DNA of 64,000 nucleotides from a virus (Duplodnaviria; Caudoviricetes), in IMG/VR virus record IMGVR_UViG_3300014205_000170, positions 288,001-352,000 of that record; one strand, 5' to 3'. The notes under the pieces were generated by a model. It made no database searches. It saw nothing but the letters and a program-made list of their open reading frames with translations, and was not told where the DNA came from. Of this stretch, positions 3,960-25,504 are shown in pieces. Made by a program: the position numbers and the translations under genes. The number at the start of each line of letters is the position of its first letter. The stretch's first letter is position 1.

Positions 3960-4424
3960 TTACTTATCCAAAATCATATCAAAAGAGATAATATTATGAA
4001 ATTGCACTACATCATTTTCAATAGTTCCTGTTGCTCTCAACGAAGTCCTAATTAAGTTATTCAAATATAATTCATGAATAAATTGAGACTTATCAGTATT
4101 TAAAAATTGAATTGTGCCATACACAACTTTATCTTGAATATATATATTCTTTATTATGTGAGTACTATTTTTAAGGTCAACAACAGTTCCGCTACCACCC
4201 TGTAATTCTTGTGCACCAAAAAATTCTCCCAACAAAAAGTCTGTTGATGTGTTTTTTATACAATCTTCTAATGAAATCCAATTAACTTCTCCATAACCCC
4301 AATAAGGAGATTTAAAATCTGTTAAAAAAACATTTTTAAAAACATTATTGTATTTTTCAAATAAAACTTTTCTATTACCCAAATGCCTATCAACATTTAA
4401 AGTAGTGATTGGAAACATTCCCAT
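3960..4424 (-). CDS. Degenerate prohead protease (T4 gp21-like) paralogue with RKVLFEK tag
   Basis: LLGEF...VDLKNSTHII...VYGTIQFLNT...TSLRATG...IISFDMI follows the gp21 layout, but GELDHP and SSRG are altered. Confidence 0.55.
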   Translation of the reverse strand: MGMFPITTLNVDRHLGNRKVLFEKYNNVFKNVFLTDFKSPYWGYGEVNWISLEDCIKNTSTDFLLGEFFGAQELQGGSGTVVDLKNSTHIIKNIYIQDKVVYGTIQFLNTDKSQFIHELYLNNLIRTSLRATGTIENDVVQFHNIISFDMILDK

Positions 4425-4762
4425 TATAATTCCTCCCTCTCAATCCATTTCCAACCCAAAAAGAAAGCAATTGCAAATCTGTTAAATCTAGTTGGTCTTT
4501 TATTTGACATTAATAAAAGTTGTTTATTTCCACCAGTAACATCATATCCACCTTTGGTATCTTGTGTTTTATTTAAAACGACTCTATCTTGAGTAACCAT
4601 TATTCCACAATTTTGATTAACATTGTTTTGAACAGCAAAAAATACATGATTTGCAACAATGGGATTTGGATTATATTTTTCAAATAATACAATGTTTTTA
4701 CGCTTATTTTTAAGCATCTTTCTTGAAACTTCAAATTTCCTTTTTAAAATCTTGAAAATCAT
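4424..4762 (-). CDS. Hypothetical protein (NIVLFEK motif)
   Basis: ORF in operon. Confidence 0.55.
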   Translation of the reverse strand: MIFKILKRKFEVSRKMLKNKRKNIVLFEKYNPNPIVANHVFFAVQNNVNQNCGIMVTQDRVVLNKTQDTKGGYDVTGGNKQLLLMSNKRPTRFNRFAIAFFLGWKWIEREEL

Positions 4763-5445
4763 TTTTTTAGTTTTTTATATTTCCAAACAAAATTGTTGGA
4801 AGTTTTTAATATACCGCGACAAGCTCTTGAGATACCTGTTGGATTTATATTTAAACCTCTACCCGCTTCTCTAATGCTATTCCACTCTTTTATTAATATT
4901 TTATTTAAATCATATTGCAAAATTGGTTTAGATTTTATTTTTATATTATAATTTGACAAATCCTTTCTAATATTTCCTCGATTAACACTCTTTCCTGTAA
5001 TTGCATTTTTGTGTAATTGTCGCCATTTTTTTTCTCTTCTACATGCTTCTTCTGCTCCATATTTCTCATTCCAAATTTTTAATATCATTGCAACAGAGGG
5101 AGCATTTGCCTTTTTATTGATATTGTACCCATGTTGACTAGAATAAGATTGTTTATAGTTAAGCCAATAATCTTCTCTATTCAACAATAAATTTTCAGAT
5201 ACTGTTTCTAATATTTGAAATTCAAATACTTCTGACCCATATTTATTCCAAGCACGTTGAAGTTTATAATTATTGTGTTTATTTTTAATAAGGGCACGTT
5301 TATGCTGTTTAAATCTCTTGTACATATCATTTGAACTGCCAATATATAATTTTTGACTTAACACATTTATGATAGCATAAATTCCCACTATTTTATTTGT
5401 AACTTTCAATTGTATTAAACTTATTTTTTTTAGTAATTGCTTCAT
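4759..5445 (-). mobile_element. GIY-YIG homing endonuclease with C-terminal NUMOD1-like DNA-binding domain
   Basis: VGIYAIINVLSQKLYIGSS; KPILQYDL...WNSIREAGR...ISRAC; overlaps the 3' end of the upstream GT; start uncertain. Confidence 0.85.
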
Positions 5446-6241
5446 GGCAACTCCATTGTAAATTTTGGTCAACTTTATCATCACTTATAGGATTGTTCCT
5501 ATTATATACATATAAAGCTTTGTCATTATGTTTAGTTTTTTCAAATCCAGCTATTTCTAACAAAGGTAAGAACATACAAACATCATATGCTGATTTATAC
5601 CATTCTCCAGTTGCATCTTTAAAACAATTAAAATCTGGGTCTTGTTTACCAATTTCATGATAAATTCCAGCTCTAAATGTTCTTATATGAGATACTTTAA
5701 ATGGTACTTTTCTTAAGCGCGGAAACTCTTCTTTAGTATATGGTGCTGAACAACACTTTCTTCCATCAGTCCACTTTGAACTTCCGTACATTATCCAACA
5801 ATCATGTTCATTATAATACTCATTGATATATGAAAGTGCATTTTTATTTAATAACCAATCGTCTCCATCTAAAATAACTACAATATCATCAGGGTCAGTA
5901 CAAAAATTCATTACTCCATTATGAATATTGGCAAGTGCTGTATTTCTTTGACTAGAACGCCAAGCCAGTACATTACTACATTTAGTAATTTCCAATAAAG
6001 GATGTTTTTCTATAATAACAGGTTTTCCTTCCTCATCCAATTCTGGAGTTCCATCAGCCTTAGTTTTAAATTTACAATCCGGTATTTTACTATAAGACCC
6101 ATCAGTTGAACAATCATCTATAAACAAAACCTCGTAATTTTCATAATTCTGTGTTAATATAGAATTAATGCACATATCCAAAAATTCGCCTGGATTATAG
6201 AAAGGTACAACAATTTTGATTTTATTTAACTTCTTTTCCAT
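5393..6241 (-). CDS. Glycosyltransferase family 2
   Basis: IVVPFYN, FIDDCSTDGS, LDGDDWL. Confidence 0.9.
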   Translation of the reverse strand: MEKKLNKIKIVVPFYNPGEFLDMCINSILTQNYENYEVLFIDDCSTDGSYSKIPDCKFKTKADGTPELDEEGKPVIIEKHPLLEITKCSNVLAWRSSQRNTALANIHNGVMNFCTDPDDIVVILDGDDWLLNKNALSYINEYYNEHDCWIMYGSSKWTDGRKCCSAPYTKEEFPRLRKVPFKVSHIRTFRAGIYHEIGKQDPDFNCFKDATGEWYKSAYDVCMFLPLLEIAGFEKTKHNDKALYVYNRNNPISDDKVDQNLQWSCHEAITKKNKFNTIESYK

Positions 6242-6769: not shown

Positions 6770-6794
6770 ACAAACAACTATAAAAAAATAAAAA

Positions 6795-7526
6795 ATGGGA
6801 AAAATCACTATCACAAAATCAGAACTTAGTAGAATTATCAAAGAAGAAGCTTTGAAATTCAAAAAAGCAATTACGCTTAAAGGCGAGCTTGATAAAATCA
6901 ATAGCGAACTTAAAAAGCTTAATGAAAATGAAGAAATTAGCGAAGTAACAGCTGGTTCAGAAATGAATGCAACCGAAAACGGTGGAGTTCATGCTGGACA
7001 AAGAAAGCCTAACTTTAGCACAAAAAATGGCAATCCAAGCCTTAAAATGGAAGATGAAGAAGAAATCACAGATGTTGAAGCAGATGTAGAAACTGATGCT
7101 GACATGGATGTTGATTCTGACACAGTAAGTAAAGCAGATTTAGTTAAAGCACTTGATGACCTTAAAATGGCATTAGGTTTAATTGAAGGGCCTGCTGATG
7201 ATATGTCTCCAGAAGAAGCTCCAATTGAAGGTGGTGATGATTTAGAAAATGACGAACCGGCTAATGAAGAAGGTGATGAAATTTTCGAATTTGACACAGA
7301 AAGCTCTAAAAAAGAAGAAGGAGCTCCAAAAATGGAAGAATGTGGTATTAAAGAAAACCTTGACGAACCTATCGAAGGGGAGAGTGTTGTTCAAAATGCA
7401 ACAGAAGACAAAGTTAACGATAATATGAAAAAAGATACTCATGTTAGCGAAAACACCGAAGTTAATTCTTTGATGGAGTCTGAAAAGAAGAGAATGGCTC
7501 AACTTGCAGGTATTGTTAAAGGCTAA
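6795..7526 (+). CDS. Acidic putative scaffold/head protein
   Basis: IIKEEA, very D/E-rich, many (I/L)xE sites, C-terminal RMAQLAGI. Confidence 0.5.
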   Translation: MGKITITKSELSRIIKEEALKFKKAITLKGELDKINSELKKLNENEEISEVTAGSEMNATENGGVHAGQRKPNFSTKNGNPSLKMEDEEEITDVEADVETDADMDVDSDTVSKADLVKALDDLKMALGLIEGPADDMSPEEAPIEGGDDLENDEPANEEGDEIFEFDTESSKKEEGAPKMEECGIKENLDEPIEGESVVQNATEDKVNDNMKKDTHVSENTEVNSLMESEKKRMAQLAGIVKG

Positions 7527-7552
7527 TTTTTTAAAAAATAAAGTTGTTTGTA

Positions 7553-7589
7553 AAAAAACTCCGGTAAAAAACATCCGGGGTTTTTTTTT
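7553..7589 (+). terminator. Intrinsic terminator
   Basis: aactccgg...ccggggtt stem followed by a T-run. Confidence 0.75.
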
Positions 7590-7667
7590 AAAAAAAAATT
7601 TTTATCAAAAGTACAATTATAGATTTCAAAACACTATTTATAACAAAACAAATTTAAAACCAAAACG

Positions 7668-8333
7668 ATGATTACATTTTTTAATCCAAAAGCAGGAAAT
7701 CCATTTAGTGTACAATACACAAATGGTAGTAAAGTTTATAAAAAAGAAATCGTACCCAACATGCTTGTTGCAATGAAAGACTTGAGTACATTATCTCAAA
7801 TCAAAAACTTCAGCGCTCTAACAAGAGAAGGTATTACGATTTATGATTATACTAGAAACGTATATGCTTTTAGTGCAGCTACATTCAGAACTGGTTTCAA
7901 AGGAGAAACCAACATGACTGGTATGACTTTTATTACTCCTTTGGTAAGTGTATCAACAGGTTGGACATTTGTTACTTCTGCTGCAACAGCTGGAGTTGCT
8001 TTAAACACAATTACGGCAAACACATTAGGTAATACTATTAGGTTCGCTTATAGTGGCGCAGGTGTTTCAACTACTGCCTGGTTAAATGCCCTTAGAACAA
8101 CAGCGTTTAGCGGAATTCCATTTACAATATTTGGAGAAAGTCCGTTGAATCTCATAACGTCCGGTGCTGCAACAACAGTAGTATTATCAGCTGCAACAGC
8201 AAGTTCTACTCCTTATCAAGCTGTATTTATAGGACATAATGATAAGAAAAATCAATACACTACACTATATGCAATGAATTATGCCACTACACTTTCCGCT
8301 TTACGCGCATTAGTGACTGGAGCAACATCTTAA
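7668..8333 (+). CDS. Putative virion protein (Thr/Ala/Ser-rich)
   Basis: Composition resembles the fibre proteins; TATTTAT motif upstream. Confidence 0.5.
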   Translation: MITFFNPKAGNPFSVQYTNGSKVYKKEIVPNMLVAMKDLSTLSQIKNFSALTREGITIYDYTRNVYAFSAATFRTGFKGETNMTGMTFITPLVSVSTGWTFVTSAATAGVALNTITANTLGNTIRFAYSGAGVSTTAWLNALRTTAFSGIPFTIFGESPLNLITSGAATTVVLSAATASSTPYQAVFIGHNDKKNQYTTLYAMNYATTLSALRALVTGATS

Positions 8334-8350
8334 TTATAGACAACAAAATT

Positions 8351-8440
8351 AAAACCACTAAGAAGACATTTTTAGTGGTTTTTTTATTTCCTTATATGCC
8401 CTAAAATAAAAAAACCGTTAAAAATTATTTAACGGTTTTT
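8351..8440. terminator. Pair of terminator hairpins between convergent genes
   Basis: aaaaccacta/tagtggtttt and aaaaaccgtta/taacggttttt. Confidence 0.7.
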
Positions 8441-8461
8441 AAAATAAGACTGATTTATGTC

Positions 8462-8680
8462 TTACATAATCATTCTACCATTTGAAGTTGAAGGTTGATG
8501 AGATTCAAAACTTCTTCCACAACAAGAACAATTATATACTTTTATCATTTCAGTTAATGCTGGTTGTGATTTTGTAGAATCTAATAATAAGTTAGAGCCT
8601 CCTACAGAAACTCTTTTTACTGATTCGCTCATTATGGAATTTACACATCCAAATGGGCAATTTACTCTTTCTAATAACAT
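8462..8680 (-). CDS. Small zinc-ribbon protein
   Basis: CPFGC...CSCC. Confidence 0.55.
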   Translation of the reverse strand: MLLERVNCPFGCVNSIMSESVKRVSVGGSNLLLDSTKSQPALTEMIKVYNCSCCGRSFESHQPSTSNGRMIM

Positions 8681-8719
8681 AATAATATAGTTTTTAATAT
8701 AAATATGCAGGCAAAAATA

Positions 8720-9445
8720 TTATTCTTTATCCTTATAACGTTCTAAAACTTCTGTAATAAGAGGATTTCTAACCACATCTTGCTCGTTAAATTTAAAAAT
8801 ACCTATTTTTTCTATTCCTTCTAAACGATTTAAAGCATCATACAAACCACTATCTGTATTCTTTTTATATCTATCAGATTGTTCTAAATAACCACTAATA
8901 ATGAATTTGGAATGATGGCCTATACGCGTAATAAGCGTTTTAACTTGTCGAGGAGTTGCATTTTGAAATTCTTCTGCAATAACAATAGAATTATCAATAT
9001 TAATACCTCTCGCATAAGCTAAAGGAAGTATTTGAAGATAACCATTCTCTCTTAATTGATTTGTTCTTTCTTCTCCTATTAATTTATTAAACAAATAAAG
9101 AGTTGAAAATATATAAGGTTGTAATTTTTCATCCGCAGTTCCTGGAAGGAATCCTAATTTCTCATCTGCTTCTACCGCTGGCGTACAGATAATGATTTTA
9201 TAAAATTCATTTTTAGAAGATTTTAAAAGTTCTAATGCTTTCAAAACTGATATCATTGACTTACCAACTCCTGCCGGACCAGAACAGATAATAATTTCTT
9301 TTTGGTCTAAGAGTTCATAAAATATTTTTTGATTATCATTTTTGGGCTTAAAGTAAAGGTCGCCTAATATAACTTCAATTACTCTCTTGGTCTCATTCTT
9401 ATAATCAGAATTACCAGTTTTGTGTTTCTTGTTTTTACCTGCCAT
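8720..9445 (-). CDS. phoH: PhoH-like ATPase
   Basis: GPAGVGKS, LGFLPG, PLAYARG, EEFQN, DVVRNPL. Confidence 0.93.
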   Translation of the reverse strand: MAGKNKKHKTGNSDYKNETKRVIEVILGDLYFKPKNDNQKIFYELLDQKEIIICSGPAGVGKSMISVLKALELLKSSKNEFYKIIICTPAVEADEKLGFLPGTADEKLQPYIFSTLYLFNKLIGEERTNQLRENGYLQILPLAYARGINIDNSIVIAEEFQNATPRQVKTLITRIGHHSKFIISGYLEQSDRYKKNTDSGLYDALNRLEGIEKIGIFKFNEQDVVRNPLITEVLERYKDKE

Positions 9446-9514
9446 TCAAGGGGTTTATCTATAAATATGCTGTTTTTTATAGCTATTTATGTTAGAGCGA
9501 AAAATTTAACAAAA

Positions 9515-10405
9515 ATGGGTCAAAAAATAAATTCTGCTGAAATTGAAGCTTTAATCAGAACAAAGATTAAAGAAAAGGGTCTTTCTGATGATATTACTGA
9601 AGTAAAATTCAGTGAAATTAAAAATGCTATAAAATCTCATTTAAAAAATACAAATACTCAACCAATAGAAGAACAAGCTCCAATAGCACCAGAAGAAACT
9701 ATAAATAACAATATCACACCGGCACAACCAACTGCTAATGCACCTGAAACTATTGCACAAACAATCACTGTTAGTAAAGAAGCAACAGAACTAGCTAAAA
9801 AAGAAGGTGAATTAACACAAAAAGAAAAAGAAATTTCCGACAAACAAGCAGACCTTGCAAATAGAGAAGCTGAATTTCAAAGAAAGCAAGATGAATTAGC
9901 ATATAAACCTCAAATACCAGCTATTTTAAACAATATTGGCAATGAGCAGTTATTTGTTTTTAGTGAAAACGAAATTAGCCTTGGAGCAGAAGCATTATCT
10001 AATACTTATTTCAGATTGATGTCAAATCCTGATGAAAAAAGAACCATGTTAGAATTGTGGACAACTGATGGTAAGAAAAGTGCTGATTTATACATTGTAA
10101 AATTTGAAAAATTAGGTGAAATAACCTTCAATCCTTTCGAAGGAATATCTAAATTTGAAAGCAAACCTATTAGTGATGGACAAAATCCATCAGAAGTACC
10201 AGTTGATGGACTCACACCAGAAGAAGCACAAGCTAGTCAAGAGCCCTCAGAAACAGTTGTAGATGCAATTGAACCGGTGGCTGATGTTTCTTTACCTCTA
10301 TCTAATGATATGGGCTTAAAACCAATAGAATTAGATGGTATTATTAAAAAACGTGTTGAAGATATGATGAATCAATACTTTGCAGAAAAGTTTCCTAAAA
10401 TGTAA
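9515..10405 (+). CDS. Hypothetical coiled-coil protein (possibly head-associated)
   Basis: Start placed at MGQK after a CTATTTAT motif; coiled-coil segment. Confidence 0.55.
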   Translation: MGQKINSAEIEALIRTKIKEKGLSDDITEVKFSEIKNAIKSHLKNTNTQPIEEQAPIAPEETINNNITPAQPTANAPETIAQTITVSKEATELAKKEGELTQKEKEISDKQADLANREAEFQRKQDELAYKPQIPAILNNIGNEQLFVFSENEISLGAEALSNTYFRLMSNPDEKRTMLELWTTDGKKSADLYIVKFEKLGEITFNPFEGISKFESKPISDGQNPSEVPVDGLTPEEAQASQEPSETVVDAIEPVADVSLPLSNDMGLKPIELDGIIKKRVEDMMNQYFAEKFPKM

Positions 10406-10406
10406 T

Positions 10407-10886
10407 ATGACTATTTCAGAACAATATAAAAATCATTTAATAAAATTAGCTGGATTAGTTAAAGAAAATGTTCAATTTAAGGCAACTCAAGGAAGAAGCG
10501 AAGAAAGAACATTAAGCTGGTATTGCGAAGAATATATTTTGGACTTCGCAGAAGATATAGTTAATACACTTGATTTTAACATTTCTAAAATGGAAGGATA
10601 TTTACTGCAAATCAGTAAGGGTTACACAAAAATATCTTCTAATACTTTTAGCACAAAATTAAACATTAAAAAAACAGATAATTCAATAGAACCATTTGAA
10701 TTTCTTTTAACTATTACTGTAAATTTTGAACAAAATTCTAATACTACCGTATCTGTTACATTAAAAGGGGTGACCAATAAATTCACCATGAATTCTAAAC
10801 ATTCAGAAGCTGACCTTTTCGATTTAAAAAATCAGGCAGTAAATTCCTTTTTAAATTCCATTACATTAATCCAAAAGGTTAATTAA
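10407..10886 (+). CDS. Hypothetical protein
   Basis: LIKLAGLVKE resembles the RMAQLAGI motif of 6795..7526. Confidence 0.55.
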   Translation: MTISEQYKNHLIKLAGLVKENVQFKATQGRSEERTLSWYCEEYILDFAEDIVNTLDFNISKMEGYLLQISKGYTKISSNTFSTKLNIKKTDNSIEPFEFLLTITVNFEQNSNTTVSVTLKGVTNKFTMNSKHSEADLFDLKNQAVNSFLNSITLIQKVN

Positions 10887-10944
10887 ATAATAAGAATTTA
10901 CTTTTTCTTACAAAAAAGTACTTTTAACATAAAATAAAACAAAC

Positions 10945-11355
10945 ATGAAAATTTGGAAAATTGAACATTCAAACAAAACAACGGATGGAGCAAAAATTGC
11001 TGTATCTATTTCTTCATCAGAATCAAAAGGTTTAATATTGAATCAAGGCGAATTCGTTTTGTGTCAAGAACAAATTACAGCTGCTCTTGATTCTCAAAAA
11101 AGAAGAGGATTTATCATAATTGAAAATTTTGACAATTCTTCTTTAAGACTTGAGCTAGGAGTAACGTATCCAACTAGTCTTTTAAAGAATTTAGCTGCTC
11201 AAAAAGCTGCAAGTGTAGAAAAAGCAACAGCAGCAATAATTTCAGAATCTTCTGTTAAAGAAGAAGATGAAGAGAATGCTCCGGACATGATAAATAAATT
11301 AGAAAGAGCAAAAAAAGATGCGACTGATTATATAAATGACAACGATAATATCTAA
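10945..11355 (+). CDS. Hypothetical protein
   Basis: ORF with A-rich leader. Confidence 0.55.
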   Translation: MKIWKIEHSNKTTDGAKIAVSISSSESKGLILNQGEFVLCQEQITAALDSQKRRGFIIIENFDNSSLRLELGVTYPTSLLKNLAAQKAASVEKATAAIISESSVKEEDEENAPDMINKLERAKKDATDYINDNDNI

Positions 11356-11360
11356 GTAAC

Positions 11361-12017
11361 ATGCCATCTGAAAACAAACAAGTAACTACATCTGCACAAT
11401 CTTGTGGAGAACCAATCACTGTGACTGGTGCACTAACAGGAACAATAGGTAATTTAGCGTCGTACAATATTGGTAATCCAGTACAACAATCATTAACATA
11501 TACTGCGCCATCTATAAATTATTTTCAAACAGTTAGTTCACCCGCTACTCCTTTAACTTTTTCAAATCTTTCTACTGATTACAGACTTTCTAAAGAAGGA
11601 GAAATTTATATCGATTCTTCAACAAATGACTGTTTTATATACTTAACAGAGTATGGTGGATGGCTTAGATGTGATATTCAAAAGATTAAAAAATCTTTTA
11701 ATAATAAAGGAGAACAAATAAATACAGTTAAAGTGTCTTTTGATTTTAGTGTAGCTAATCTTAAAAAATATTATCAATTAAGAACAGTATTAACAGAAAA
11801 ATATTCAAAATCAAAAATAGTTATTTATGATTTTGCTAGTAGTTCTACAATTACAAGTGCTTATTCTACATATGTACAACCATCATATATATTAAGTACT
11901 CCACTAGCCGGAACTGCAATTGATTGCACTGCCGGATATATTACCACTGATATTTCAACGGTAATTGGTACAAATTATGTTAATTTCAACAATGCACAAA
12001 CGAGCTGTTTAGCTTAA
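11361..12017 (+). CDS. Hypothetical protein (RTVLTEK motif)
   Basis: ORF in operon. Confidence 0.55.
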   Translation: MPSENKQVTTSAQSCGEPITVTGALTGTIGNLASYNIGNPVQQSLTYTAPSINYFQTVSSPATPLTFSNLSTDYRLSKEGEIYIDSSTNDCFIYLTEYGGWLRCDIQKIKKSFNNKGEQINTVKVSFDFSVANLKKYYQLRTVLTEKYSKSKIVIYDFASSSTITSAYSTYVQPSYILSTPLAGTAIDCTAGYITTDISTVIGTNYVNFNNAQTSCLA

Positions 12018-14658: not shown

Positions 14659-14879
14659 TTTTTTTCAAACAAAATCATTCTTTTTAAAGGTTGTGCGATA
14701 AAATATTCTGCTGCACCAAACGTTTCTGGTTCTGGTTGTTGAAAATAAAATACATTATATGAATTAATTCTTTGAAACATATAATAATCTTCAACTTTAT
14801 TATACTCTTTCGTCACTCTATATAGATGTTTTTGATTGTCTCGACTTAAAACAATATCTCCAAATTCAAATCTACCCAT
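14655..14879 (-). CDS. Hypothetical protein (C-terminal RMILFEKK)
   Basis: Start placed at MGRFEFGDIV. Confidence 0.5.
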   Translation of the reverse strand: MGRFEFGDIVLSRDNQKHLYRVTKEYNKVEDYYMFQRINSYNVFYFQQPEPETFGAAEYFIAQPLKRMILFEKK

Positions 14880-15483
14880 TTTCAATAAATGTTGAATATT
14901 GCATAGCCATAGCCTTCGCAATACCCGGAAAAGTTTTACTTCTTAATTTAGCGCGGTCTTCTGTTGGTGATAAACGATGTAATCTTTGTTCTCTACCAGC
15001 TACTATATTAGTAGGGGTTAATAATGGTAAATTTTTTAACCATAAACAAGTTGCTTTAGTTTCTCCATGTCCAAACATCCAAGGTTGTAATACTTGGTCT
15101 GGCTTTCTAAATTCACTGCTCATTACACCAATAGGATTTTCAATTGCAATTCTTGGAATTTCACAATTATACAAATCCATAAAAAATTTTATTGCTTCTA
15201 CTCTTGCTGCTCTTCTTTCTGCACCAACTAAAGTACCGGATTTTCTTGGAGGTTGGTCTTTGTACCATTTATTAGCACTAATAGTCAAATAAGTGCAAGG
15301 TGGAAAAAATATTGCCAAATCCCATTGTTTCATTCTTATTGCTTCAAACACATCCATTTGTAAATGCCACTCAGGATGCCCTCCGGAACATTCTAACATA
15401 TCATTACTATATGCTTCATGTCCTAATGCTCTAAACGCTTTGCACACTTCTTGACTCTCTTCACAGCCTAATAATACTTTCAT
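14872..15483 (-). CDS. DNA cytosine methyltransferase-like protein
   Basis: VLLGCEES, FPPCTY, IENPIG, RSKTFPGIA. Confidence 0.75.
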   Translation of the reverse strand: MKVLLGCEESQEVCKAFRALGHEAYSNDMLECSGGHPEWHLQMDVFEAIRMKQWDLAIFFPPCTYLTISANKWYKDQPPRKSGTLVGAERRAARVEAIKFFMDLYNCEIPRIAIENPIGVMSSEFRKPDQVLQPWMFGHGETKATCLWLKNLPLLTPTNIVAGREQRLHRLSPTEDRAKLRSKTFPGIAKAMAMQYSTFIENG

Positions 15484-16326: not shown

Positions 16327-16797
16327 TTATTTTTTTAAAAAATACATATAAGTAGAAGTGGGGAACAAAGATTTTTCGAACAAAACTGTACGACTATTCA
16401 TTGTGGAAACGATAGATTTTATTGTATTAATAATAGAATCAATTTTAAAACCAGAAAGATATCCTGATACAGGAGTGCCTCCAATAACATAAGCACCACA
16501 GTGCTTAATAACACTATAATCAACATCATCTAAATAAGTTTCATAATCAGAAGAAGTCACATCTTCATTCACAACAATAGTTCCTTTATTGTTATAATAA
16601 ATTAATATTTCAAATTCATCATAGTCTGTTAATAATTCTAACGTTTTTCGTGGGTTTGAGTAATGACCTGAACTAGCTTGAATAGAAATAACAAATCCTT
16701 CTCCTAAATCTACATGAGAATTCATTCCATAACCATGTTCAATTTTACGCTCTTTTATTAGAGGAATGAAATCAAATTTATTTATTTCTGGTATCAA
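16327..16797 (-). CDS. Hypothetical protein (RTVLFEK motif)
   Basis: ISIQASSGHYSNPR; motif near the C-terminus. Confidence 0.55.
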   Translation of the reverse strand: MIPEINKFDFIPLIKERKIEHGYGMNSHVDLGEGFVISIQASSGHYSNPRKTLELLTDYDEFEILIYYNNKGTIVVNEDVTSSDYETYLDDVDYSVIKHCGAYVIGGTPVSGYLSGFKIDSIINTIKSIVSTMNSRTVLFEKSLFPTSTYMYFLKK

Positions 16798-17164: not shown

Positions 17165-17517
17165 TTTTCATTTATAGATTTATGATGTAATCTAACTTCT
17201 TCTATTGGCCAATGCTCCAGAGAAGTTTGTATTTCTGAAATTTCTGCTTTATCAACCCAAAAAAATATTTTCGAATTCATTGCAGTTGAACAAACATTGA
17301 ATTTGTCTGTTTCAATACAAAAACCCACAACAATAAGTGGGTCATCAGAATAAACAATATTATCTTTTCCTAATGTTTTATCTTTAAGCAAAAAAGCATA
17401 TGATACATGTATCGATACGCTGTCTGTGTCCCAGTTAATGTCCGTATTAAATAACGCATCATTATATTTTACATGACCTTTTTTGGAAAATAATATTTCA
17501 TCTGCATTAGGCATCAA
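17074..17517 (-). CDS. Hypothetical protein
   Basis: ORF in operon. Confidence 0.45.
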   Translation of the reverse strand: MMPNADEILFSKKGHVKYNDALFNTDINWDTDSVSIHVSYAFLLKDKTLGKDNIVYSDDPLIVVGFCIETDKFNVCSTAMNSKIFFWVDKAEISEIQTSLEHWPIEEVRLHHKSINEKWMTIKTNTTKELSKNKTKLKKRELKGNKK

Positions 17518-18376
17518 AATGTTGTCTTAAAATAGAACTGTTAACGCGACATTTCAATATTTTTAAAGCGCCATCTTTAATTTGTCTTACTCTTTCTCTT
17601 GTTAACTCAAAATATTCACCAATTTCTTCTAAAGTCATAGCCTGTTGACCTAATAAACCAAAATACATACATACAACAGATTTTTGTCTTGGAGTAAGTC
17701 TATCCAACACTTTTTCTAAGTCCGCTTTCATAGACTCTTTATTTAGGTCACTATCAGGACTGATGCTATCTTTGTTTGGTATAAAATCCATTAACGTTAA
17801 AGCGCCATCATCTTCTGAAATAGGAGTTTCTAATGAAACCGTTCTACCGGTCATCATTCTTACATCCTTAACTTTAACATCAATGCCTTCTAAGGATTGT
17901 TGCACTTCATCATCTGTTGGTTCTCTTTCTAAAATTTGTTCAAGATTAGAAATTGCTTTATTTACTTTATATATGGATGAAGTTTGATTGCTTGGAATAC
18001 GAATTAATCTGGATTGCTCTGCAAGTGATTGCATTATAGCTTGTCTAATCCACCAAACAGCATAAGAAATAAATTTAAATCCACGATTAGAATCAAATTT
18101 TTTGGCTGCTTTTATTAAACCCAAATTACCTTCATTCACCAAATCTTCTAAAGGAAGACCACGATTTTGGTATTGTTTTGCGACGGATATAACAAAACGA
18201 AGGTTACCACGAACTAATTTATCTAAGGCTTTATCATCACCGCTAGTAGCTTTTTTGGCTAAATCAATTTCCTGGGTATCAGTAAGGAGAGGAATCTTAC
18301 TGATTTCATTAAAATATTTTGTAATGGATTCACTATCTCTATTAGTTATCCTTTTGGTAATCTTAAGTTGTCTCAT
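17507..18376 (-). CDS. RpoD/SigA-like sigma-70 factor (Bacteroidota type)
   Basis: MRQLKIT, NLRFVISVAKQYQ, GFKFISYAVWWIRQ, TRERVRQIK. Confidence 0.95.
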   Translation of the reverse strand: MRQLKITKRITNRDSESITKYFNEISKIPLLTDTQEIDLAKKATSGDDKALDKLVRGNLRFVISVAKQYQNRGLPLEDLVNEGNLGLIKAAKKFDSNRGFKFISYAVWWIRQAIMQSLAEQSRLIRIPSNQTSSIYKVNKAISNLEQILEREPTDDEVQQSLEGIDVKVKDVRMMTGRTVSLETPISEDDGALTLMDFIPNKDSISPDSDLNKESMKADLEKVLDRLTPRQKSVVCMYFGLLGQQAMTLEEIGEYFELTRERVRQIKDGALKILKCRVNSSILRQHFDA

Positions 18377-18452: not shown

Positions 18453-19328
18453 TTAGTTTAAATACTTACGAAGCAAGTTCGAACTACTAAACCTTCGCAA
18501 TCTTCTTAAAGCTTTTTCTTTGATTTGTCGAACACGTTCTGCAGAACAATCATATTTCAGTGCTATCTCTGAGAAAGACAAGGGTTGGCGACCATTTAAA
18601 CCAAAAAATAATTCAACCATTTCTCTTTCTTTTTCTGGTAATGTAGCAATGGCTCTATTCACATCTTTTTTAATAGATTCTGTTAATAACAGTGGCTTGT
18701 CTGGAGAGTAAATGTCACTGTCAAGAGGTTGTATAACATCTAATAATGATGGAGAAGTTTCATCATCAGAAAGAGGAGAATCATACGATTGAACTCTTTG
18801 CATAATTTTCATTAAATCACTTATCTCTTTTTGACCCAGACCCATTTTCTCCATTACTTCTTCATCGCATGGTGGTCGACTCAAATCTTGTTCTAATTTA
18901 GAATAAGCAGTTAAAAATTTATTTTGTAAAGAGATTTTATTTAAAGGGATTCTAATTAACCGGCTGTTATCTGCGATATTTTGAAGGATGGATTGTCTAA
19001 TCCACCAAACAGCAAACGAAATAAACTTAAAACCTCTAGTTTCATCGAATTTATAGGCAGCTTTAATAAGCCCTAAATTGCCCTCATTAATAAGGTCTTG
19101 TAAATCAATTCCACGATTCTGATACTGTTTGGCCACAGAGACAACAAAACGTAAATTAGCGCATACCATTTTGTTTAAAGCAGCTTTATCACCCTCTCTA
19201 ATTTTCCTTGTAAGCTCAATTTCTTCTTCATGTGTTATCATGGGAAGTTTGGCAAGTTCAGTAAGATATTTTTCAACCGATTTAGAACTTCGATTGGTAA
19301 CAGAGGGAGTAATTTTTAATTGTCTCAT
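18453..19328 (-). CDS. Second RpoD/SigA-like sigma-70 factor
   Basis: MRQLKIT, NLRFVVSVAKQYQ, FISFAVWWIRQ, SAERVRQIK. Confidence 0.95.
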   Translation of the reverse strand: MRQLKITPSVTNRSSKSVEKYLTELAKLPMITHEEEIELTRKIREGDKAALNKMVCANLRFVVSVAKQYQNRGIDLQDLINEGNLGLIKAAYKFDETRGFKFISFAVWWIRQSILQNIADNSRLIRIPLNKISLQNKFLTAYSKLEQDLSRPPCDEEVMEKMGLGQKEISDLMKIMQRVQSYDSPLSDDETSPSLLDVIQPLDSDIYSPDKPLLLTESIKKDVNRAIATLPEKEREMVELFFGLNGRQPLSFSEIALKYDCSAERVRQIKEKALRRLRRFSSSNLLRKYLN

Positions 19329-19387
19329 ATAGGTTTAAAACGTTGGTCTCATTTTAAACGAATCAATATAAATTTTGTTACAAAAAA

Positions 19388-20188
19388 TTACTTTGTTAGT
19401 AAAAATTGCAGTCTATCTCTGATTTTAGCGCAAAATTCATAGTTTTCCTTATCAATAGCTTTGGTCAACAATGAATTCAAAAATTCCACACTTGTAATTC
19501 TATCCAGATTTTGGTTAAACACTTCTTCAATTTTAACTCCACTATATCCACTTAAAGATTCTGTTTTGTTGTGAATAGCTGGATAATAAAAAAATTCAAC
19601 AGAACCTGTAGTTGCATTTTGTAAAATATTATATAAAATAATATCTTGTTCTTCAAAACTTAATTTGTTGAATCTTTTAAATTCTTCTTGTTCTCTATTT
19701 ACCAGTTCAGATTTTGCTTTATAATAATCATCACACATGTGCTCAACTTCTTGTGGCATATGAGCATAATTCATTCTGATTGAAATTGTGTTCTTTGTAT
19801 TTTTAGTAGAAAGATTTTTAATATCTGATTTTCTAGTCGCAATTAAAAAACAACCGGTTACTTCATGAATTAATCCTAATTTATGAAACATTTTAGGATA
19901 TAACTTTCTCTTATTAATGTGTTGAATAACTTTATCTTGTTCATTTAAAAGACCTTCAACATCTACAATAAAATCATCATTTGGGAAAATTTTGGAATAA
20001 TCTATTTTTTCAGCCATATTAACATATTCTAAAACAATAAAATAATTTAATTTGGATATAGAATCGATTCTCGCAATTCCTTCTTTACCACCCTTACTTT
20101 TAATTTCAAAAAATTTTTCTTGAACTAATTTGTATTCTTCCAACAGGGATTTTGCTCTTCTAAACGAAACTTTTTTAATTATTTTCAT
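19388..20188 (-). CDS. Hypothetical protein with C-terminal UvrB/UvrC motif
   Basis: LTKAIDKENYEFCAKIRDRL. Confidence 0.7.
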   Translation of the reverse strand: MKIIKKVSFRRAKSLLEEYKLVQEKFFEIKSKGGKEGIARIDSISKLNYFIVLEYVNMAEKIDYSKIFPNDDFIVDVEGLLNEQDKVIQHINKRKLYPKMFHKLGLIHEVTGCFLIATRKSDIKNLSTKNTKNTISIRMNYAHMPQEVEHMCDDYYKAKSELVNREQEEFKRFNKLSFEEQDIILYNILQNATTGSVEFFYYPAIHNKTESLSGYSGVKIEEVFNQNLDRITSVEFLNSLLTKAIDKENYEFCAKIRDRLQFLLTK

Positions 20189-20236
20189 CGTCCAAGAATT
20201 ATATGTTATACATAAATATATTAGAAAAATACACTC

Positions 20237-20479
20237 CTATATATTCCAGTCTAATTGATTAAAAAACGCTTTAATCACACCAAAAGATTCTTGGTCAAAA
20301 GTCTTAGCCGTAACCTCTCCTTTTTCATTAATAAAATTAATAGATAAAAACTTAATTTGTTGTCCTTTTTCTCTAAAAGTAACCAAATCAACTTCAAATT
20401 TACCTCCACCCTCTCCATCTGCTAAATGCAAATATGTGGTTTTTTCATTTCCTTGTCCTTGTGTATTGGTACTTTCCAT
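20237..20479 (-). CDS. Hypothetical protein
   Basis: ORF. Confidence 0.5.
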   Translation of the reverse strand: MESTNTQGQGNEKTTYLHLADGEGGGKFEVDLVTFREKGQQIKFLSINFINEKGEVTAKTFDQESFGVIKAFFNQLDWNI

Positions 20480-20533
20480 TATTAAAAGTATTTTTTTTTA
20501 AAATTAAATAGAGATTGTCAAAAAGTAAACAAC

Positions 20534-20767
20534 TCAAAATGAAACAACACCATATAGATTATGGTTCACTTGAATTTTAGCATATCTAGAAGTTACTTTT
20601 TTAGATGGAGTAAAATCATCCACAATAATTGACGTATTATACATAGGTATATAAGGAGCAAAAATATAACCTGCCTCATATTCAAATCGTTTACGTTTTT
20701 TTTCAAACAATACTTTTCGAGTATATGAATCTTTATTTTCTTTTATAATATTATGATGGAAATTCAT
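20534..20767 (-). CDS. Major-capsid-protein C-terminal fragment homologue with RKVLFEK tag
   Basis: EAGYIFAPYIPM...FTPSKKVTSRYAKIQVNHNLYG resembles the C-terminus of gp23-family capsid proteins. Confidence 0.65.
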   Translation of the reverse strand: MNFHHNIIKENKDSYTRKVLFEKKRKRFEYEAGYIFAPYIPMYNTSIIVDDFTPSKKVTSRYAKIQVNHNLYGVVSF

Positions 20768-21113
20768 TTACTTTTTCCTTTTTTAAATTCAAAACTTACA
20801 CTAGTATTTCCTTCAAAAGCAACTATCGTATTTTTTGGAGACAAAACAACTAAATTAAGGTCATTTGAGATTTTTTCAAATAAAACCATTTTTTTATATA
20901 ATGTTGTTATAGTTCCTTCCACTATTATTTTGTTTTAAAAATATTTATTGCGTCTAATGTTAAAAGTAATAATTTTCTTGTCATTCCCCAATAGATTTTC
21001 ATTCTTTTCAAAAAACTAATTGAAATTTCTTCTGTCTTCTCAATAATAACAAAACGCGTATTGTCATGCATTATTAAATCAAAATCTTCTGGCTTTTCAA
21101 CAAAATCTCTCAT
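20764..21113 (-). CDS. Hypothetical protein with apparent frameshift near 20935 (two VxxEK motifs)
   Basis: ORF 20925..21113 continues in the -1 frame as KIIVEGTITTLYKKMVLFEKISND...KKGKSK*. Confidence 0.45.
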
Positions 21114-21328
21114 TAATATTGACTCTTATTATCTTGCCTTTGCTTTTGTATACTTAATCTAAGAGGCAAGATTAATTCTTCAATCAATTTCAATTTTTTT
21201 CGAGCCCTAACAGAAGCTGTATCATTTTTAGTTTTACCTATAAATTTATACAACTCAGATTCACTTTCGTTTAACAGCTTTCTGATTTTTTGAAATTGCT
21301 CATCTATATTATAATCGTCATAAAACAT
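21113..21328 (-). CDS. Histone H1-like (Hc1-family) small protein
   Basis: KNDTASVRARKKLKLI...LRLSIQ pattern. Confidence 0.55.
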   Translation of the reverse strand: MFYDDYNIDEQFQKIRKLLNESESELYKFIGKTKNDTASVRARKKLKLIEELILPLRLSIQKQRQDNKSQY

Positions 21329-21339
21329 TTTTTATTTTT

Positions 21340-23235
21340 TTAATCTAAAATTTCACCTTCTTTTTTATTGATTCCATCTTCAAGGCTCTTGAGATGATTT
21401 TCAATATTTTCCATTAGCATTTTTGTTCTATGATTTACAGCTGCATTATTTTTTTGTAACTTCGTAGGTTGGTTTTTTTTAGGTGCTCCTTCTGAAAGTG
21501 GTTCTTCCGGAATCGTTTCTTCTCCTCCTTCACCACCTTCTGCACCAGCTTCTGCTCCTAAGTTTTCTCCTCCGGCTTCACCGCCTAAGCCTCCCATATC
21601 AGCTCCGCCACCCATATCAACTCCACCACCTAAGCCACCGCCAAGACTACTGCTTATTCCTGCACCAGCACTTGCTCCCATATCAGCTCCACCACCCATG
21701 TCACCATTAGCTGCATCAGGTTGTGCTCCTGGTACAAAATCTGGTCTTCTGAATTTTTTATCAAGGTCTACAAATATTCCAGTTTCAATATATTCAGCAG
21801 CAGCGCCCTCAATTTCAGAAAACATCTTACGTTCAATTTTCTTCTGTCTAATAATTTGTTTTATTTCAGCCTCAGAAAAACCCATAATATATTGCATTGC
21901 CCAAGTATAAGACACTGGAGAAGTAGGTTCAGGAGTAAACATAGCTTGAAACACTTCTAAACGTGCTTTCATTGTTTCCAACTTAAGCAACTCTTGTTGA
22001 GTTGAAGGATTTGCTAATGTTAATTGAAAATTATCTATTTCATCTTCTAGACCTAAAAAATATAAATGAATATTTGCAACTCTTCTTAATTCTATAATAA
22101 TGAATTGTTGAAGTCTGTTTATAGTTCTTGAAAATCTTAAATCCGCTTGAGAAAGTGCTGAACCTCCCGGAATAGTTTCTGCATAATTTAAATAAGGTTT
22201 TGGAACTTTTAAAGCCGCAAATAATTTATTTTGTAGATATTCAATATCCGCAATATCATTTAAATTAGATGCACCTGGTAATGTTTCAATTCTAGAACTT
22301 TTATCTCCTCTTACTGGTAAAAAATAATCTTCTTCATAAGTAATAGGACTATATTTTAAATTTATATTTCCAGTTGTCGGGTCTACTAAAGGAGCTTTTT
22401 TAACTTGCGCTTTAGTTTTCTCCATAAATTGAGGCACATCTGCAGGGTCTATATTTCCAACTTCAATAAAATATACTCTACGCTCTGGTGCTCTTACTAA
22501 TCTATAAACCAACATAGCATCTTCCGCTAATTGTAATTGTTTCCACAATTTTCGAGCTGGTTCTAAAACAGAACGACCATATGGTAATCGACTACTATCA
22601 GAAAGTAATCTAAAGTGTGCAATTTGCCATTCCTCAAAGAACATATTGCCAACATCCCATCTAAATCTACATTTACCCAATTCATTCGTTGGAGATTCTT
22701 CTCTATGAATTTCTCCAACTGGTAATTGAATAATATCATAAACACCTCTTTCTTGGTCTATTTCCAATTTTAAAAATAAATCACCAAATTTTAACAATTC
22801 TCTAGACCAAAAACCAAGATTATAATTTACATTAAGAACATTATAAAATAAATCTTTTAAAGTCTTTTTTACTCTCGAATTTTCACTGTATATAGTTAAA
22901 ATTTCACCTTGTTCAGAACGCGTTACACATTCATCAGCTAAAATATCCAATGCCGCAGAAACTTCCGGAGATTGGTCCATTGCTCTATAATCTTGATAAG
23001 ATGTAAATCTATCTGCTTCATAATATAAAGAACGTGAATATAAATCTTGTGCAATTTTTGAAGATTGTATATCTAAAAATTCTTGTTGTTTTTGTTGTTT
23101 GGATGCAAAAGGATTACTTAAAGCCGGTGTGCTTACAAGTATGTTTTTATTGGTTTCTTCCGCGCTTTGAGGTCGCTGTCTTCTCAGAGCTCTAAACACC
23201 CCTGCGAATATACTATCATCATATTTTTCAGCCAT
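21340..23235 (-). CDS. Portal protein (T4 gp20-like)
   Basis: AEDAMLVYRLVRAPERRVYFIEVGN, EEDYFLP, IETLPGA, ALKVP; Gly-rich C-terminal tail. Confidence 0.95.
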   Translation of the reverse strand: MAEKYDDSIFAGVFRALRRQRPQSAEETNKNILVSTPALSNPFASKQQKQQEFLDIQSSKIAQDLYSRSLYYEADRFTSYQDYRAMDQSPEVSAALDILADECVTRSEQGEILTIYSENSRVKKTLKDLFYNVLNVNYNLGFWSRELLKFGDLFLKLEIDQERGVYDIIQLPVGEIHREESPTNELGKCRFRWDVGNMFFEEWQIAHFRLLSDSSRLPYGRSVLEPARKLWKQLQLAEDAMLVYRLVRAPERRVYFIEVGNIDPADVPQFMEKTKAQVKKAPLVDPTTGNINLKYSPITYEEDYFLPVRGDKSSRIETLPGASNLNDIADIEYLQNKLFAALKVPKPYLNYAETIPGGSALSQADLRFSRTINRLQQFIIIELRRVANIHLYFLGLEDEIDNFQLTLANPSTQQELLKLETMKARLEVFQAMFTPEPTSPVSYTWAMQYIMGFSEAEIKQIIRQKKIERKMFSEIEGAAAEYIETGIFVDLDKKFRRPDFVPGAQPDAANGDMGGGADMGASAGAGISSSLGGGLGGGVDMGGGADMGGLGGEAGGENLGAEAGAEGGEGGEETIPEEPLSEGAPKKNQPTKLQKNNAAVNHRTKMLMENIENHLKSLEDGINKKEGEILD

Positions 23236-23294
23236 TTTGTATCAAGTTTTATATTACAAATAAATTAGTTTTTTAGTCAAAGTAAACCATTAGG

Positions 23295-24980
23295 TTAGGT
23301 GGAAATAGGTCCATATAGCCACCCTAAATCACTATCTGGAGTTTGTATATTTTTCTTTATTTCCTTTTGTATATTAGCAGAAGGCGCATTAGGATTACCA
23401 TTTGTTTGATAGCTGATGGATTCAATCATAGCTTTAAAAAATTCTTTACTTTTAAATACATTATCAAATTCAGTATCTCTCATAAATAATGCTATCGCAA
23501 ATGCAAAAATAAGGTCATCATTATATCCATCAGCATGCTCAGGTTTATCGCCTTTATGGATGAATGTTCGAAATTCAGTCAATAGTCTTTTTGAATAAAT
23601 TTTTACTTGTGTTTCTCTCATATATTTTGCTACACAACTCATTAGTAAAGGTCTAGTTTTTGAAGTTGTTTGAAAACCTGGAATTTCACTATCTTGGTCT
23701 ATAAAATCAAGTCCACCATATCTTACATAGATTTTTTTAATTGATTTAGAATGATGAATTTTATCAGAAGGATATCCTAAAGTATTTTTAAGCGCAAGTG
23801 TCGTTACTAAACCATGGTTATTTCCTTCAATCGCAACAAAGGCCATATTATAATCAATTGCTACCTTCATCACTAATTGTGCAAAAACATCTGGAGGGAT
23901 TTTACCTTGATATTCTGCTACTTGAGTTAAAGTATCTGCATTAATTACTTGTAAAGTTGAAAAGTCAGCACTATCTCCACGGGCAACATCCCCTCCTATA
24001 ATATAATTTGCTTTAGGTTCTGGTTTTTCCCAAACATAAAATGTAGTTTCTCTTTTAATAAATCGCTCTGCTGGTTCTTTGTAATCGTAATACCAAACAG
24101 GTTTAATTGTAGAAATATTATTTTCATATTTGTCAATAATCCAATTTTCAATTACAACAGCAGAAGAGCCTTCAAATGATAAATCTAATTCTTGTGCGAT
24201 TTTAATTTTATCATATTTCATCAATGCGCATTGTTCTTCATACCAAGGACTCCACCAAAATCTTCTTCCATGTTCATCTACTCTTTCTTCTAATCCTCTT
24301 GCATAATAAGGATGTTTACTCCAATGCACTTCTGTTCCAACAAAAGCTTTTTTATCTGTCTTTTGTTTTTTAATTGTTTCTGTCCAAGTTGTATGATATA
24401 AACCACCAGTTCCATTTGGAGTAGAAATCATAATACACTTAGCACTTTCAGCAGATAAAGCCAAACCTGCAGCCATCCAAATTTCTTCTGCGTTTTCAAT
24501 AAACGCAGTCTCATCTAAAATTAACATTGTTAATGTTTCTCCACGTCCAGCATTTCCACCGGAAGCTACCGCCTTACACCAACTACCATTAGATATGATA
24601 ATTTGTTGTGTATTATTTGTAGGAATGCTATCAGGTAAAAGAAAAGGAGGTAAGTAATCTAAAAATTGTTTTACCGATGCTAAAAATCGTCTTGCTCCAG
24701 CACCATCATTTGCTACAATAAGAATTCTTTCATTCTCATTAAAAAGCATTTTCCAACATACATATCCAGATGTAATTACACTAAGTCCTGTCTGGCGAGC
24801 TTTAAGTATAATGTTATTTTTATGATTTGTGTAATTACTTAAAACTTCTTTTTGATATTCGAAAAGAGTTAATCTATCAATAGTATTTTTGGTAATATCA
24901 AAAATATAACCATACGTATTCATAAAATACACAGGGTCTCTAGCACATCTTATAAATTCTATTGTTTCTTGTTGTGTCAT
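23295..24980 (-). CDS. Terminase large subunit (T4 gp17-like)
   Basis: LKARQTGLS, LILDETAFI, ISTPNG, GGDVARGDSADFST, NDDLIFA. Confidence 0.95.
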   Translation of the reverse strand: MTQQETIEFIRCARDPVYFMNTYGYIFDITKNTIDRLTLFEYQKEVLSNYTNHKNNIILKARQTGLSVITSGYVCWKMLFNENERILIVANDGAGARRFLASVKQFLDYLPPFLLPDSIPTNNTQQIIISNGSWCKAVASGGNAGRGETLTMLILDETAFIENAEEIWMAAGLALSAESAKCIMISTPNGTGGLYHTTWTETIKKQKTDKKAFVGTEVHWSKHPYYARGLEERVDEHGRRFWWSPWYEEQCALMKYDKIKIAQELDLSFEGSSAVVIENWIIDKYENNISTIKPVWYYDYKEPAERFIKRETTFYVWEKPEPKANYIIGGDVARGDSADFSTLQVINADTLTQVAEYQGKIPPDVFAQLVMKVAIDYNMAFVAIEGNNHGLVTTLALKNTLGYPSDKIHHSKSIKKIYVRYGGLDFIDQDSEIPGFQTTSKTRPLLMSCVAKYMRETQVKIYSKRLLTEFRTFIHKGDKPEHADGYNDDLIFAFAIALFMRDTEFDNVFKSKEFFKAMIESISYQTNGNPNAPSANIQKEIKKNIQTPDSDLGWLYGPIST

Positions 24981-25060
24981 TGTATTTAACTAACAATAAA
25001 TAGCTTAATTTTTACCTATTTTGGCAAAAAATCAACTATTTTCCTTAATAAAATGATATT

Positions 25061-25504
25061 TTATCTTTCGAAAGAAAAAGCGAAAAAATTAATTATAATT
25101 GATGGTTTACCATCAATAGATGTAATTGAATTTAATTGACATCCACGTAATGATAAAAAATGTTTATAATATTTAGAATTTAAATAAAAAAAAAACATAT
25201 CAACTCCTTTGGTGTTTTTGCCTTGTTCAAACTTACGAAGCCATTTAATGAAATTAGCAGATTGAGTTTTATCATAAGAATCAACTATATTAATAGTAAT
25301 GGGTTCTAGAATTTCAATCCACTTTTCTTCTTCATTCATTTCTAATGTCATTTTTGTACTTACTGTTGGGTCAAATTCAACTAATAACATAGTTTCTAAA
25401 TGTGAATTGTAATCACAAAATTTCATTCCAAATAAATTTTGATTTGATTTTTTTTCAAATAGAACTTTTCTTTTATTAAAATTTTGTAATAACGTCTTTA
25501 TCAT
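25061..25504 (-). CDS. Degenerate tail-tube (gp19-like) paralogue with RKVLFEK tag
   Basis: EPITINIVD...FIKWLR...LSLRGCQLNSI aligns by eye with tube 34977..35465 (ETIDIEFID...VMEWVR...TMVGCQITS). Confidence 0.5.
   Translation of the reverse strand: MIKTLLQNFNKRKVLFEKKSNQNLFGMKFCDYNSHLETMLLVEFDPTVSTKMTLEMNEEEKWIEILEPITINIVDSYDKTQSANFIKWLRKFEQGKNTKGVDMFFFYLNSKYYKHFLSLRGCQLNSITSIDGKPSIIINFFAFSFER

Follow-up and report, generated by a model that had tools for sequence, protein, structure and literature searches.

The stretch of DNA described here, referred to below as the window, is 64,000 nt in length and represents bases 288001–352000 of IMG/VR record IMGVR_UViG_3300014205_000170. The record is that of a complete virus, 518,809 bp, with direct terminal repeats and 30% G+C; the phage is related to T4. 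Three open reading frames (ORFs) in the window have a heptapeptide, RKVLFEK (the tag), joined to a body that resembles a virion-assembly protein. These are a truncated prohead protease (pseudo-protease), a C-terminal piece of the major capsid protein (mini-MCP; MCP, major capsid protein) and a tail tube protein (tube copy). The original prediction, made from the DNA sequence alone, stated that the exact heptapeptide is within the first 25 residues of all three ORFs, and this is correct (Table 1). The three ORFs are very probably real, selected genes that encode truncated or catalytically dead paralogues of the phage's own virion-assembly proteins, to which a portable linear peptide has been added.

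The pseudo-protease was proposed to be gp21-like, and this homology is borne out. Comparison with a 50-sequence alignment of the gp21 family gives an hhalign probability of 95.3% and an E value of 2.3e-8 over 99 columns. Residues 52–152 align to positions 58–162 of the phage's own protease, and approximately the first 57 and the last 60 residues of the enzyme are missing. PHROG 207, a head maturation protease family, is matched with an E value of 1.4e-4, and BLASTP against the phage's own protease gives an E value of 0.002. There is no match to Pfam PF03420 at E 0.1. The column of the invariant catalytic His (T4 H85) has Gln. The catalytic Ser (T4 S140) is retained and only its motif is changed, from SSRG to SLRA, so the statement that both the His and Ser motifs are altered is half right. 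S140 is the first S of the SS pair, as read from the mutated chain of 5JBL and from the H85A/S140A mutant, a dead mutant of the T4 gp21 protease (PMC12991175). The phage's own prohead protease matches 5JBL with an E value of 1e-19. Judged from these alignments, the ORF encodes a true homologue of T4-type prohead proteases (Peptidase S77, gp21 family), but not an active enzyme of that family.

The mini-MCP was thought to resemble the C-terminus of gp23, in agreement with the comparison to the phage's own MCP. Residues 31–75 show 53% identity to MCP residues 460–506 over 47 residues (BLASTP, E 1e-12). Pfam Gp23 (PF07068) is matched at positions 309–349 with an E value of 6.9e-5 and 22.9 bits, compared with a curated cut-off of 24.4 bits. 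As only this short MCP segment is covered, a complete capsid fold is not present. The mini-MCP and its orthologues are 77, 83, 116–117 and 208 aa in length. Those of 116–208 aa are internally deleted copies of MCP 285–519, and the longest is colinear with the MCP and has its tag between the spine-helix and C-terminal pieces. Two neighbouring ORFs of 52 and 62 aa are also tagged, and in both the tag is conserved in orthologues.

The tube copy was described as a diverged tail-tube protein. An AlphaFold2 model built on six orthologues has a pLDDT of 76 and a pTM of 0.70. Residues 17–147 superimpose on AFP/PVC tube proteins (6rao_F) with a VIA-align Z score of 10.1 over 123 residues and an rmsd of 4.0. 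The 50 best structural matches are nearly all Hcp or phage tail-tube chains; the Foldseek E value is 1.5e-3, and DSR2-tail-tube structures are among the fold matches. Searches of Pfam and PHROG gave no tube match. The similarity to the true tube sequence is marginal (hhalign E 0.0085, 31 colinear columns), and the true tube itself has only 21 bits on PF06841. The description therefore holds for the fold, whereas the sequence relationship is at the margin. The ORF is a predicted tail-tube/Hcp-fold protein (T4 gp19 family), confirmed at fold level only. The tag is in a disordered N-terminal arm that is outside the fold and is the only segment of the model with a pLDDT <50.

RKVLFEK represents one form of a more general peptide, [RK]-x-[VI]-[LIVM]-x-E-K. 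A search of the window with back-translated RKVLFEK and at most two mismatches shows 7 occurrences where 0.77 are expected. In the whole genome the pattern [RK]-x-[VI]-L-x-E-K is found in 122 ORFs and the reversed pattern in 4; the relaxed pattern given above has 166 occurrences in 163 of the 821 genes, compared with 5 for its reverse. With the preceding residue included the consensus is (T/S)-[RK]-x-[VI]-[LIVM]-h-E-K, Thr or Ser being frequent before the tag. At position 4, 98% of tags have L, I or M, and the residues found at position 5 are I, F, T, L and V. The Glu of position 6 is fixed by the search pattern itself, and the flanks are not conserved. The placement of the tag is bimodal: 53 tags are close to the N-terminus and 82 to the C-terminus, and 31 are internal; in the N-terminal class the tag starts at residues 2–60. 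In the three tube paralogues it is found on an N-terminal extension, on another N-terminal extension and on a C-terminal extension.

The original prediction described the tag on copies of virion-assembly proteins and needs correcting in that the tag is not particular to them. About 20% of the proteome is tagged, at either terminus or internally, and the tagged proteins are mostly <250 aa and mainly of no known family. Paralogue clusters take in only 49 of the tagged genes. The tag is thus portable across unrelated proteins, and any explanation must start from a genome-wide tag system that has the virion-protein copies as one of its classes of cargo. Tagging is uneven along the genome: the first 40 kb have 1 tagged gene of 93, the stretch at 40–80 kb has 45 of 89 and that at 500–520 kb has 24 of 48. 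A full-text literature search showed no description of such a tag.

Synonymous codon choice inside 118 tags is the same as genome-wide usage at every tag position, the DNA flanking the tag sites is not conserved, and tag matches follow gene orientation (14 forward and 14 reverse, compared with 1 for the control). These properties show that selection is on the peptide and not on a DNA signal; a motif at the DNA level is ruled out by the codon usage together with the unconserved flanks.

Comparison with related phages shows that the mini-genes are maintained. Eleven IMG/VR contigs (L016–L026), whose terminases are 82–86% identical to that of this phage, have the same gene order, and orthologues of the mini-genes are at the same positions in 8–11 related contigs. 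For the tube copy, the mini-MCP and the 52-aa and 62-aa ORFs, every orthologue has an open frame. The tag is invariant in these orthologues (R/K, V/I, L/I, E, K), yet the bodies are only 34–51% identical. NG86 dN/dS values are 0.15–0.6 for the mini-genes, compared with 0.03–0.18 for terminase and portal. The closest pairs give pN/pS values of 0.13 (52-aa ORF), 0.19 (tube copy), 0.28 (62-aa ORF) and 0.42–0.64 (mini-MCP), and neutrality is rejected with p values from 0.049 to 1e-9. The intact frames and pN/pS values below 1 indicate fast-evolving genes under purifying selection and not pseudogenes; neutral decay, for which a dN/dS check across relatives had been suggested, is not borne out. The relatives' sequences, approximately 118 kb, have 37 tags compared with 1 for the reversed pattern. 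In 41-kb samples of the terminase region from the 484-kb uncultured phage LR756508.1 and from a Flavobacterium phage, whose terminases are 32–34% identical, there is no tag above background. This form of the tag is specific to the clade.

Table 1. Tagged genes and reference genes of the phage. Coordinates are those of the window unless marked as genome.
Feature	Coordinates	Strand	Remarks
Pseudo-protease (predicted), 154 aa	3960-4424	(-)	RKVLFEK at residues 18-24, DNA 4353-4373
Mini-MCP, 77 aa	20534-20767	(-)	RKVLFEK at residues 17-23, DNA 20699-20719
Tube copy (predicted tail-tube/Hcp fold), 147 aa	25061-25504	(-)	RKVLFEK at residues 12-18, DNA 25451-25471
52-aa ORF, no known family	20764-20922	(-)	KKMVLFEK, DNA 20872-20892; absent from the original prediction
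62-aa ORF, no known family	20925-21113	(-)	TRFVIIEK; absent from the original prediction
112-aa ORF	4424-4762	(-)	Near-tag RKNIVLFEK; adjoins pseudo-protease; absent from the original prediction
107-aa ORF	2801-3124	(-)	RNVITEK at residue 99, near C-terminus
218-aa ORF	11361-12017	(+)	Internal RTVLTEK at residue 141
88-aa ORF	14655-14921	(-)	KRMILFEKK-stop at extreme C-terminus
156-aa ORF	16327-16797	(-)	RTVLFEK 15 residues from C-terminus
Orphan P-loop protein, 252 aa	44200-44958	(+)	Internal tag variant RFVLTEK, residues 134-140
109-aa ORF	62944-63273	(+)	C-terminal RTVLIEKK-stop
Portal protein	21340-23235	(-)	Tagged mini-ORFs downstream
Large terminase	23295-24980	(-)	
True tail tube	34977-35465	(-)	Untagged reference copy
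Sheath	35974-38295		
Tube-fold copy	genome 261867-262433		39% identical to tube; tag on N-terminal extension
MCP, gp23-type	genome 355857-357416		HK97 fold family
Prohead protease, gp21-type	genome 358997-359665		
Tube-fold copy	genome 367880-368494		31% identical to tube; tag on C-terminal extension
Terminase piece (ATPase part of large terminase)	genome 472490-473170		C-terminal tag

Other tagged copies of virion proteins were found by BLAST of all tagged genes against the genome, a procedure that is biased towards proteins with recognisable paralogues. Genome-wide there are three tagged copies of the tube, three of the MCP, one of the large terminase and one of the protease. The three MCP pieces cover MCP residues 29–107, 275–323 and 460–506, and two of them are doubly tagged. 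The piece termed mini-MCP-N (genome 432124–432528) has a 19-residue insert with TRIVIFEK in the region where the MCP has two candidate LxE maturation sites.

The orphan P-loop ORF was described as a decayed helicase-like fold with the motif, which is not confirmed. The motif is the variant RFVLTEK and is internal, the Pfam matches, although colinear, are weak (DnaB_C 0.05, nSTAND3 0.008–0.025, Rad51 0.059), and the single-sequence fold model has a pLDDT of 38. The Walker A sequence is GGRTT, where Lys is replaced by Arg. The protein is possibly RecA/DnaB-like. In a PDB sequence search, its residues 135–182 (44602–44745, (+) strand), from the tag variant on, resemble the N-terminus of ribosomal protein uL23 (9nri_BT, E 0.04, 47 residues). 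A uL23 domain homology was rejected: Pfam Ribosomal_L23 finds nothing in the genome and the segment scores as Rad51, so the resemblance is that of a short motif and may be due to chance.

The position of the mini-genes within transcription units is of importance for their interpretation. The sequence CTATTTAT, probably a late promoter, is found upstream of the terminase, sheath, scaffold and other large structural genes; the copy at the terminase is at about 24996–25003 on the (-) strand. The tube copy ends the structural operon that precedes the terminase and has an ATGA overlap with its upstream neighbour. There is no terminator-like site at positions 19000–28500 of the window, and terminase, portal, a histone H1-like (Hc1-like) ORF and then three tagged mini-ORFs, including the mini-MCP, appear to form one operon. 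In T4, small prohead-core genes stand after the portal gene, where the tagged mini-ORFs are located here. A second sequence, TTCGTATAGTACA, is present 13 nt before the start of nearly every gene in the first 40 kb and probably represents a distinct, perhaps the earliest, promoter class. Approximately 55 copies are found at genome positions 535–46105 and 516067–518487, mostly 13 nt upstream of small genes by the terminal repeat. The large tagged blocks are long gap-free operons, and no k-mer is specifically enriched upstream of tagged genes. Stop-codon recoding need not be considered, as the large late genes have open frames when read with the standard code (table 11).

The tag is probably a docking or sorting signal for one common partner and not part of any fold. 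As a whole, the best explanation that can be offered, and it is a tentative one, is that the tagged paralogues follow a route similar to that of the T4 capsid targeting sequence (CTS) by way of the prohead protease and core and have a role as bait or in the core. The T4-type prohead protease and prohead core would be the reader of the tag, which is our leading guess and is put forward with reserve. The tag, like the CTS, would bring a protein into the assembling head; the prohead protease would then cut after the Glu of the tag, and the released protein would enter the next host together with the ejected DNA. The bodies would keep only those pieces of capsid, tube and protease that are recognised by other molecules. 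They may conceivably bait or antagonise the host sensors that detect these proteins, or else be extra components of the core.

Several properties of the tag and its genes are consistent with the prohead reading. Every tag has I/L-x-E, the site after which gp21-family proteases cut; gp21 itself cuts after Glu in I/LxE (PMC12991175). The mini-genes of the window are in late operons, and one tag is near the maturation region of the MCP. T-even internal proteins are diverse defence proteins that have only a CTS in common and are targeted to the scaffolding core (PMC3012670). The CTS of T4 (IPI-III and Alt, processed by gp21) is the closest known analogue, and it is by this analogy that packaging and cleavage of the tagged proteins are proposed. 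Both are short portable peptides on unrelated, fast-evolving proteins of T4-related phages, both contain the I/L-x-E site of a gp21-family protease, and among the T4 cargo are anti-defence proteins that are injected along with the DNA (PMC3012670; PMC12991175). They differ in that the CTS represents the first ~10 residues of a handful of proteins, whereas the tag is at either terminus or internal in 163 genes and additionally has invariant Arg, Val and Lys residues, which the phage's own MCP and scaffold sites lack.

Encapsulins provide a second comparison. In these, a short terminal peptide on unrelated cargo docks inside an HK97-fold shell, and the phage MCP may be likened to such a shell, from its sequence, as a member of the same fold family. 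The encapsulin peptides differ from the tag in sequence, and encapsulin cargo consists of enzymes.

A number of observations weigh against the prohead reading. Roughly one tag in two is C-terminal or close to it, some as ...EK-stop, and a cut there takes off next to nothing; in known prohead substrates the part removed is an N-terminal propeptide (PMC10052503). The LxE sites of the MCP N-terminus and of the scaffold (acidic, 491 aa, encoded between the MCP and prohead protease genes) are plain ones that lack the R, V and K seen in the tag, thus the extended tag is not simply a preference of the protease. One fifth of a proteome is a lot to package, and the dense tagged blocks at 40–80 kb and 500–520 kb, where half of the genes are tagged, look non-late. 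The pseudo-protease has no homologue besides itself among 5.8 billion proteins, and a search for relatives of the orphan P-loop ORF found none. A complex prediction of the phage protease with the tag arm of the tube copy gave a score of 0.00, which is no verdict either way.

The main rival explanation, on balance a rather improbable one, is that an AAA+ protease, likeliest the phage's own ClpC-like unfoldase with ClpP, recognises the tag as a degron or an adaptor handle. In one version the tagged proteins would be degraded on schedule so that the fragments do not poison the phage's own assembly; in another they would be adaptors that deliver targets bound by their bodies, e.g., host sensors, for destruction. 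The genome encodes ClpP (172443–173189, E 1.8e-62) and a 673-aa Clp ATPase (173917–175938, AAA_2, E 1.8e-65), which is a two-ring form without an N-domain, and a tagged 228-aa ORF is located between the two genes (genome 172443–175938). The phage encodes no HSP70. Recognition peptides of AAA+ proteases are short and portable and work at either terminus; the bimodal N- and C-terminal position of the tag fits such peptides better than a propeptide, and the disordered arm that carries the tag in the tube copy also fits. The tag has in common with ssrA, the SspB XB peptide and the docking peptides of ClpC adaptors that it is short, portable and terminal and would have one reader machine, for which a ClpC-like ATPase and ClpP of the phage are candidates. 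It has no sequence likeness to these peptides, however, and to our knowledge it resembles no known ClpX, ClpA or ClpC degron, which counts against the Clp explanation. In addition, a Clp ATPase of this kind is encoded by the distant phage LR756508.1, but the 41 kb sampled from it show no tag enrichment.

The mini-proteins could instead be assembly regulators or dominant-negative subunits that co-assemble with the capsid, tube or protease of the phage itself or of a co-infecting relative, the tag serving only to bring them to the assembly site. That the bodies keep interface-rich conserved parts (the MCP C-terminal segment, N-arm and spine-helix piece, the whole tube domain and the protease core) and that the mini-genes are in late structural operons would fit this proposal, which we consider unlikely. 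The divergence of the bodies, 34–51% identity compared with 82–86% for terminase, is unusual for parts that fit conserved partners, and the same tag on some 150 unrelated small proteins is left unexplained.

Mimicry of the N-terminal docking strand of uL23, by which the tag would recruit or titrate a host factor such as trigger factor, is very unlikely. It was suggested by the match of the orphan P-loop ORF described above. The uL23 strand, which we take to be [RK]-P-[ILV]-[ILV]-[ST]-E-K with its Glu docking trigger factor, fits the tag pattern except for the Pro. However, Pro is not enriched at position 2 of the tag, neither the Pfam search of the genome nor the score of the segment supports L23, the strand in uL23 is part of a fold and not a free peptide, and the likeness was noticed post hoc. 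The explanation that the ORFs are decaying pseudogene remnants, or that the motif is a read-through DNA signal (promoter or recombination site), can be dismissed as highly improbable: the bodies are short and highly diverged and the pseudo-protease has lost its catalytic His, but no relative has a disrupted frame, pN/pS values are <1 with neutrality rejected, and the tag is always in frame on the coding strand with synonymous variation as in the rest of the genome and unconserved flanks.

Under the prohead reading and under the Clp explanation, the bodies may be directed at host sensors. The idea that defence sensors respond to structural or assembly proteins, on which the original prediction based a decoy role, agrees with the literature in that the copied classes match reported triggers. 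For Avs families these are MCP, tail tube, portal and RecA-type ATPases (bioRxiv 10.64898/2026.01.04.697583), and for CBASS the activity of the prohead protease has been reported as a trigger (PMC12991175). With Avs, DSR2, CapRel and protease-sensing CBASS taken together, the MCP, tube, terminase, protease and perhaps RecA-type ATPase classes copied here correspond to reported triggers. The correlation is suggestive, and a decoy role is plausible. A speculative extension, to which we give a low probability, is that dead trigger copies (capsid, tube, terminase, protease and RecA-type ATPase) bind host receptors without activating them, and that the heptapeptide links these baits and ~150 small effectors to a single machine of the phage. 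One candidate is ClpC-ClpP, which would destroy what the bait holds, and the other is the prohead, which would pre-load the baits for injection. A full-text literature search found no paper describing phage-encoded fragments of triggers as decoys. We know of no phage inhibitor of such sensors (e.g., DSAD1) that is a fragment of the trigger itself.

If the tag is an address label, one peptide opens ~160 otherwise unannotatable megaphage proteins to experiment. If the copies of capsid, tube, terminase and protease do antagonise receptors, they would represent a new principle of counter-defence by self-derived decoys and a natural guide to the surfaces of core proteins that are read by receptors. 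The portability of the tag at two ends could make it useful for cargo loading of phage heads or for targeted degradation.

The surroundings of the pseudo-protease show additional features. The adjoining 112-aa ORF with the near-tag was considered as a candidate for the N-terminal half that the protease copy lacks, and was rejected; its hhalign probability is 0.5% and it has no relationship to the protease family. Between a glycosyltransferase gene and these two ORFs there is a GIY-YIG/NUMOD1 homing endonuclease gene (4759–5484, (-) strand). Because of this gene, the mini-ORFs were also considered as 3' exons of genes split by an intron or homing endonuclease. This was not supported: Rfam found only tRNAs, and full-length MCP, protease and tube genes are present elsewhere. 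Many close public relatives of the prohead protease (e.g., P0005–P0010) are 550–770 aa in length and have two matching stretches that split near residue 80, as expected for an interruption by an intein or a fusion to another domain.

In four of the related contigs, L023–L026 (e.g., L023:3879–6776 and 6839–11335), terminase and portal are each matched in two pieces with gaps of ~1 kb and 2.6 kb, which points to insertions (of an intein, intron or homing-endonuclease gene) that this phage lacks. The Hc1-like ORF directly 3' of the portal gene (21113–21328, (-) strand) is 71 aa and matches Pfam Hc1 with 25.5 bits, above the cut-off. It is untagged, and no other small gene of the region is as conserved (dN/dS of 0.01–0.04); from its sequence, it may be a DNA-condensing head protein. 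Further along the same strand, 17507–18376 and 18453–19328 are adjacent paralogues of a sigma-70-like factor (PHROG 351, E 1e-70 and 1e-66). The motif TCGTTTAA is located upstream of the second of these genes, and the same motif is found before ~20 genes genome-wide.

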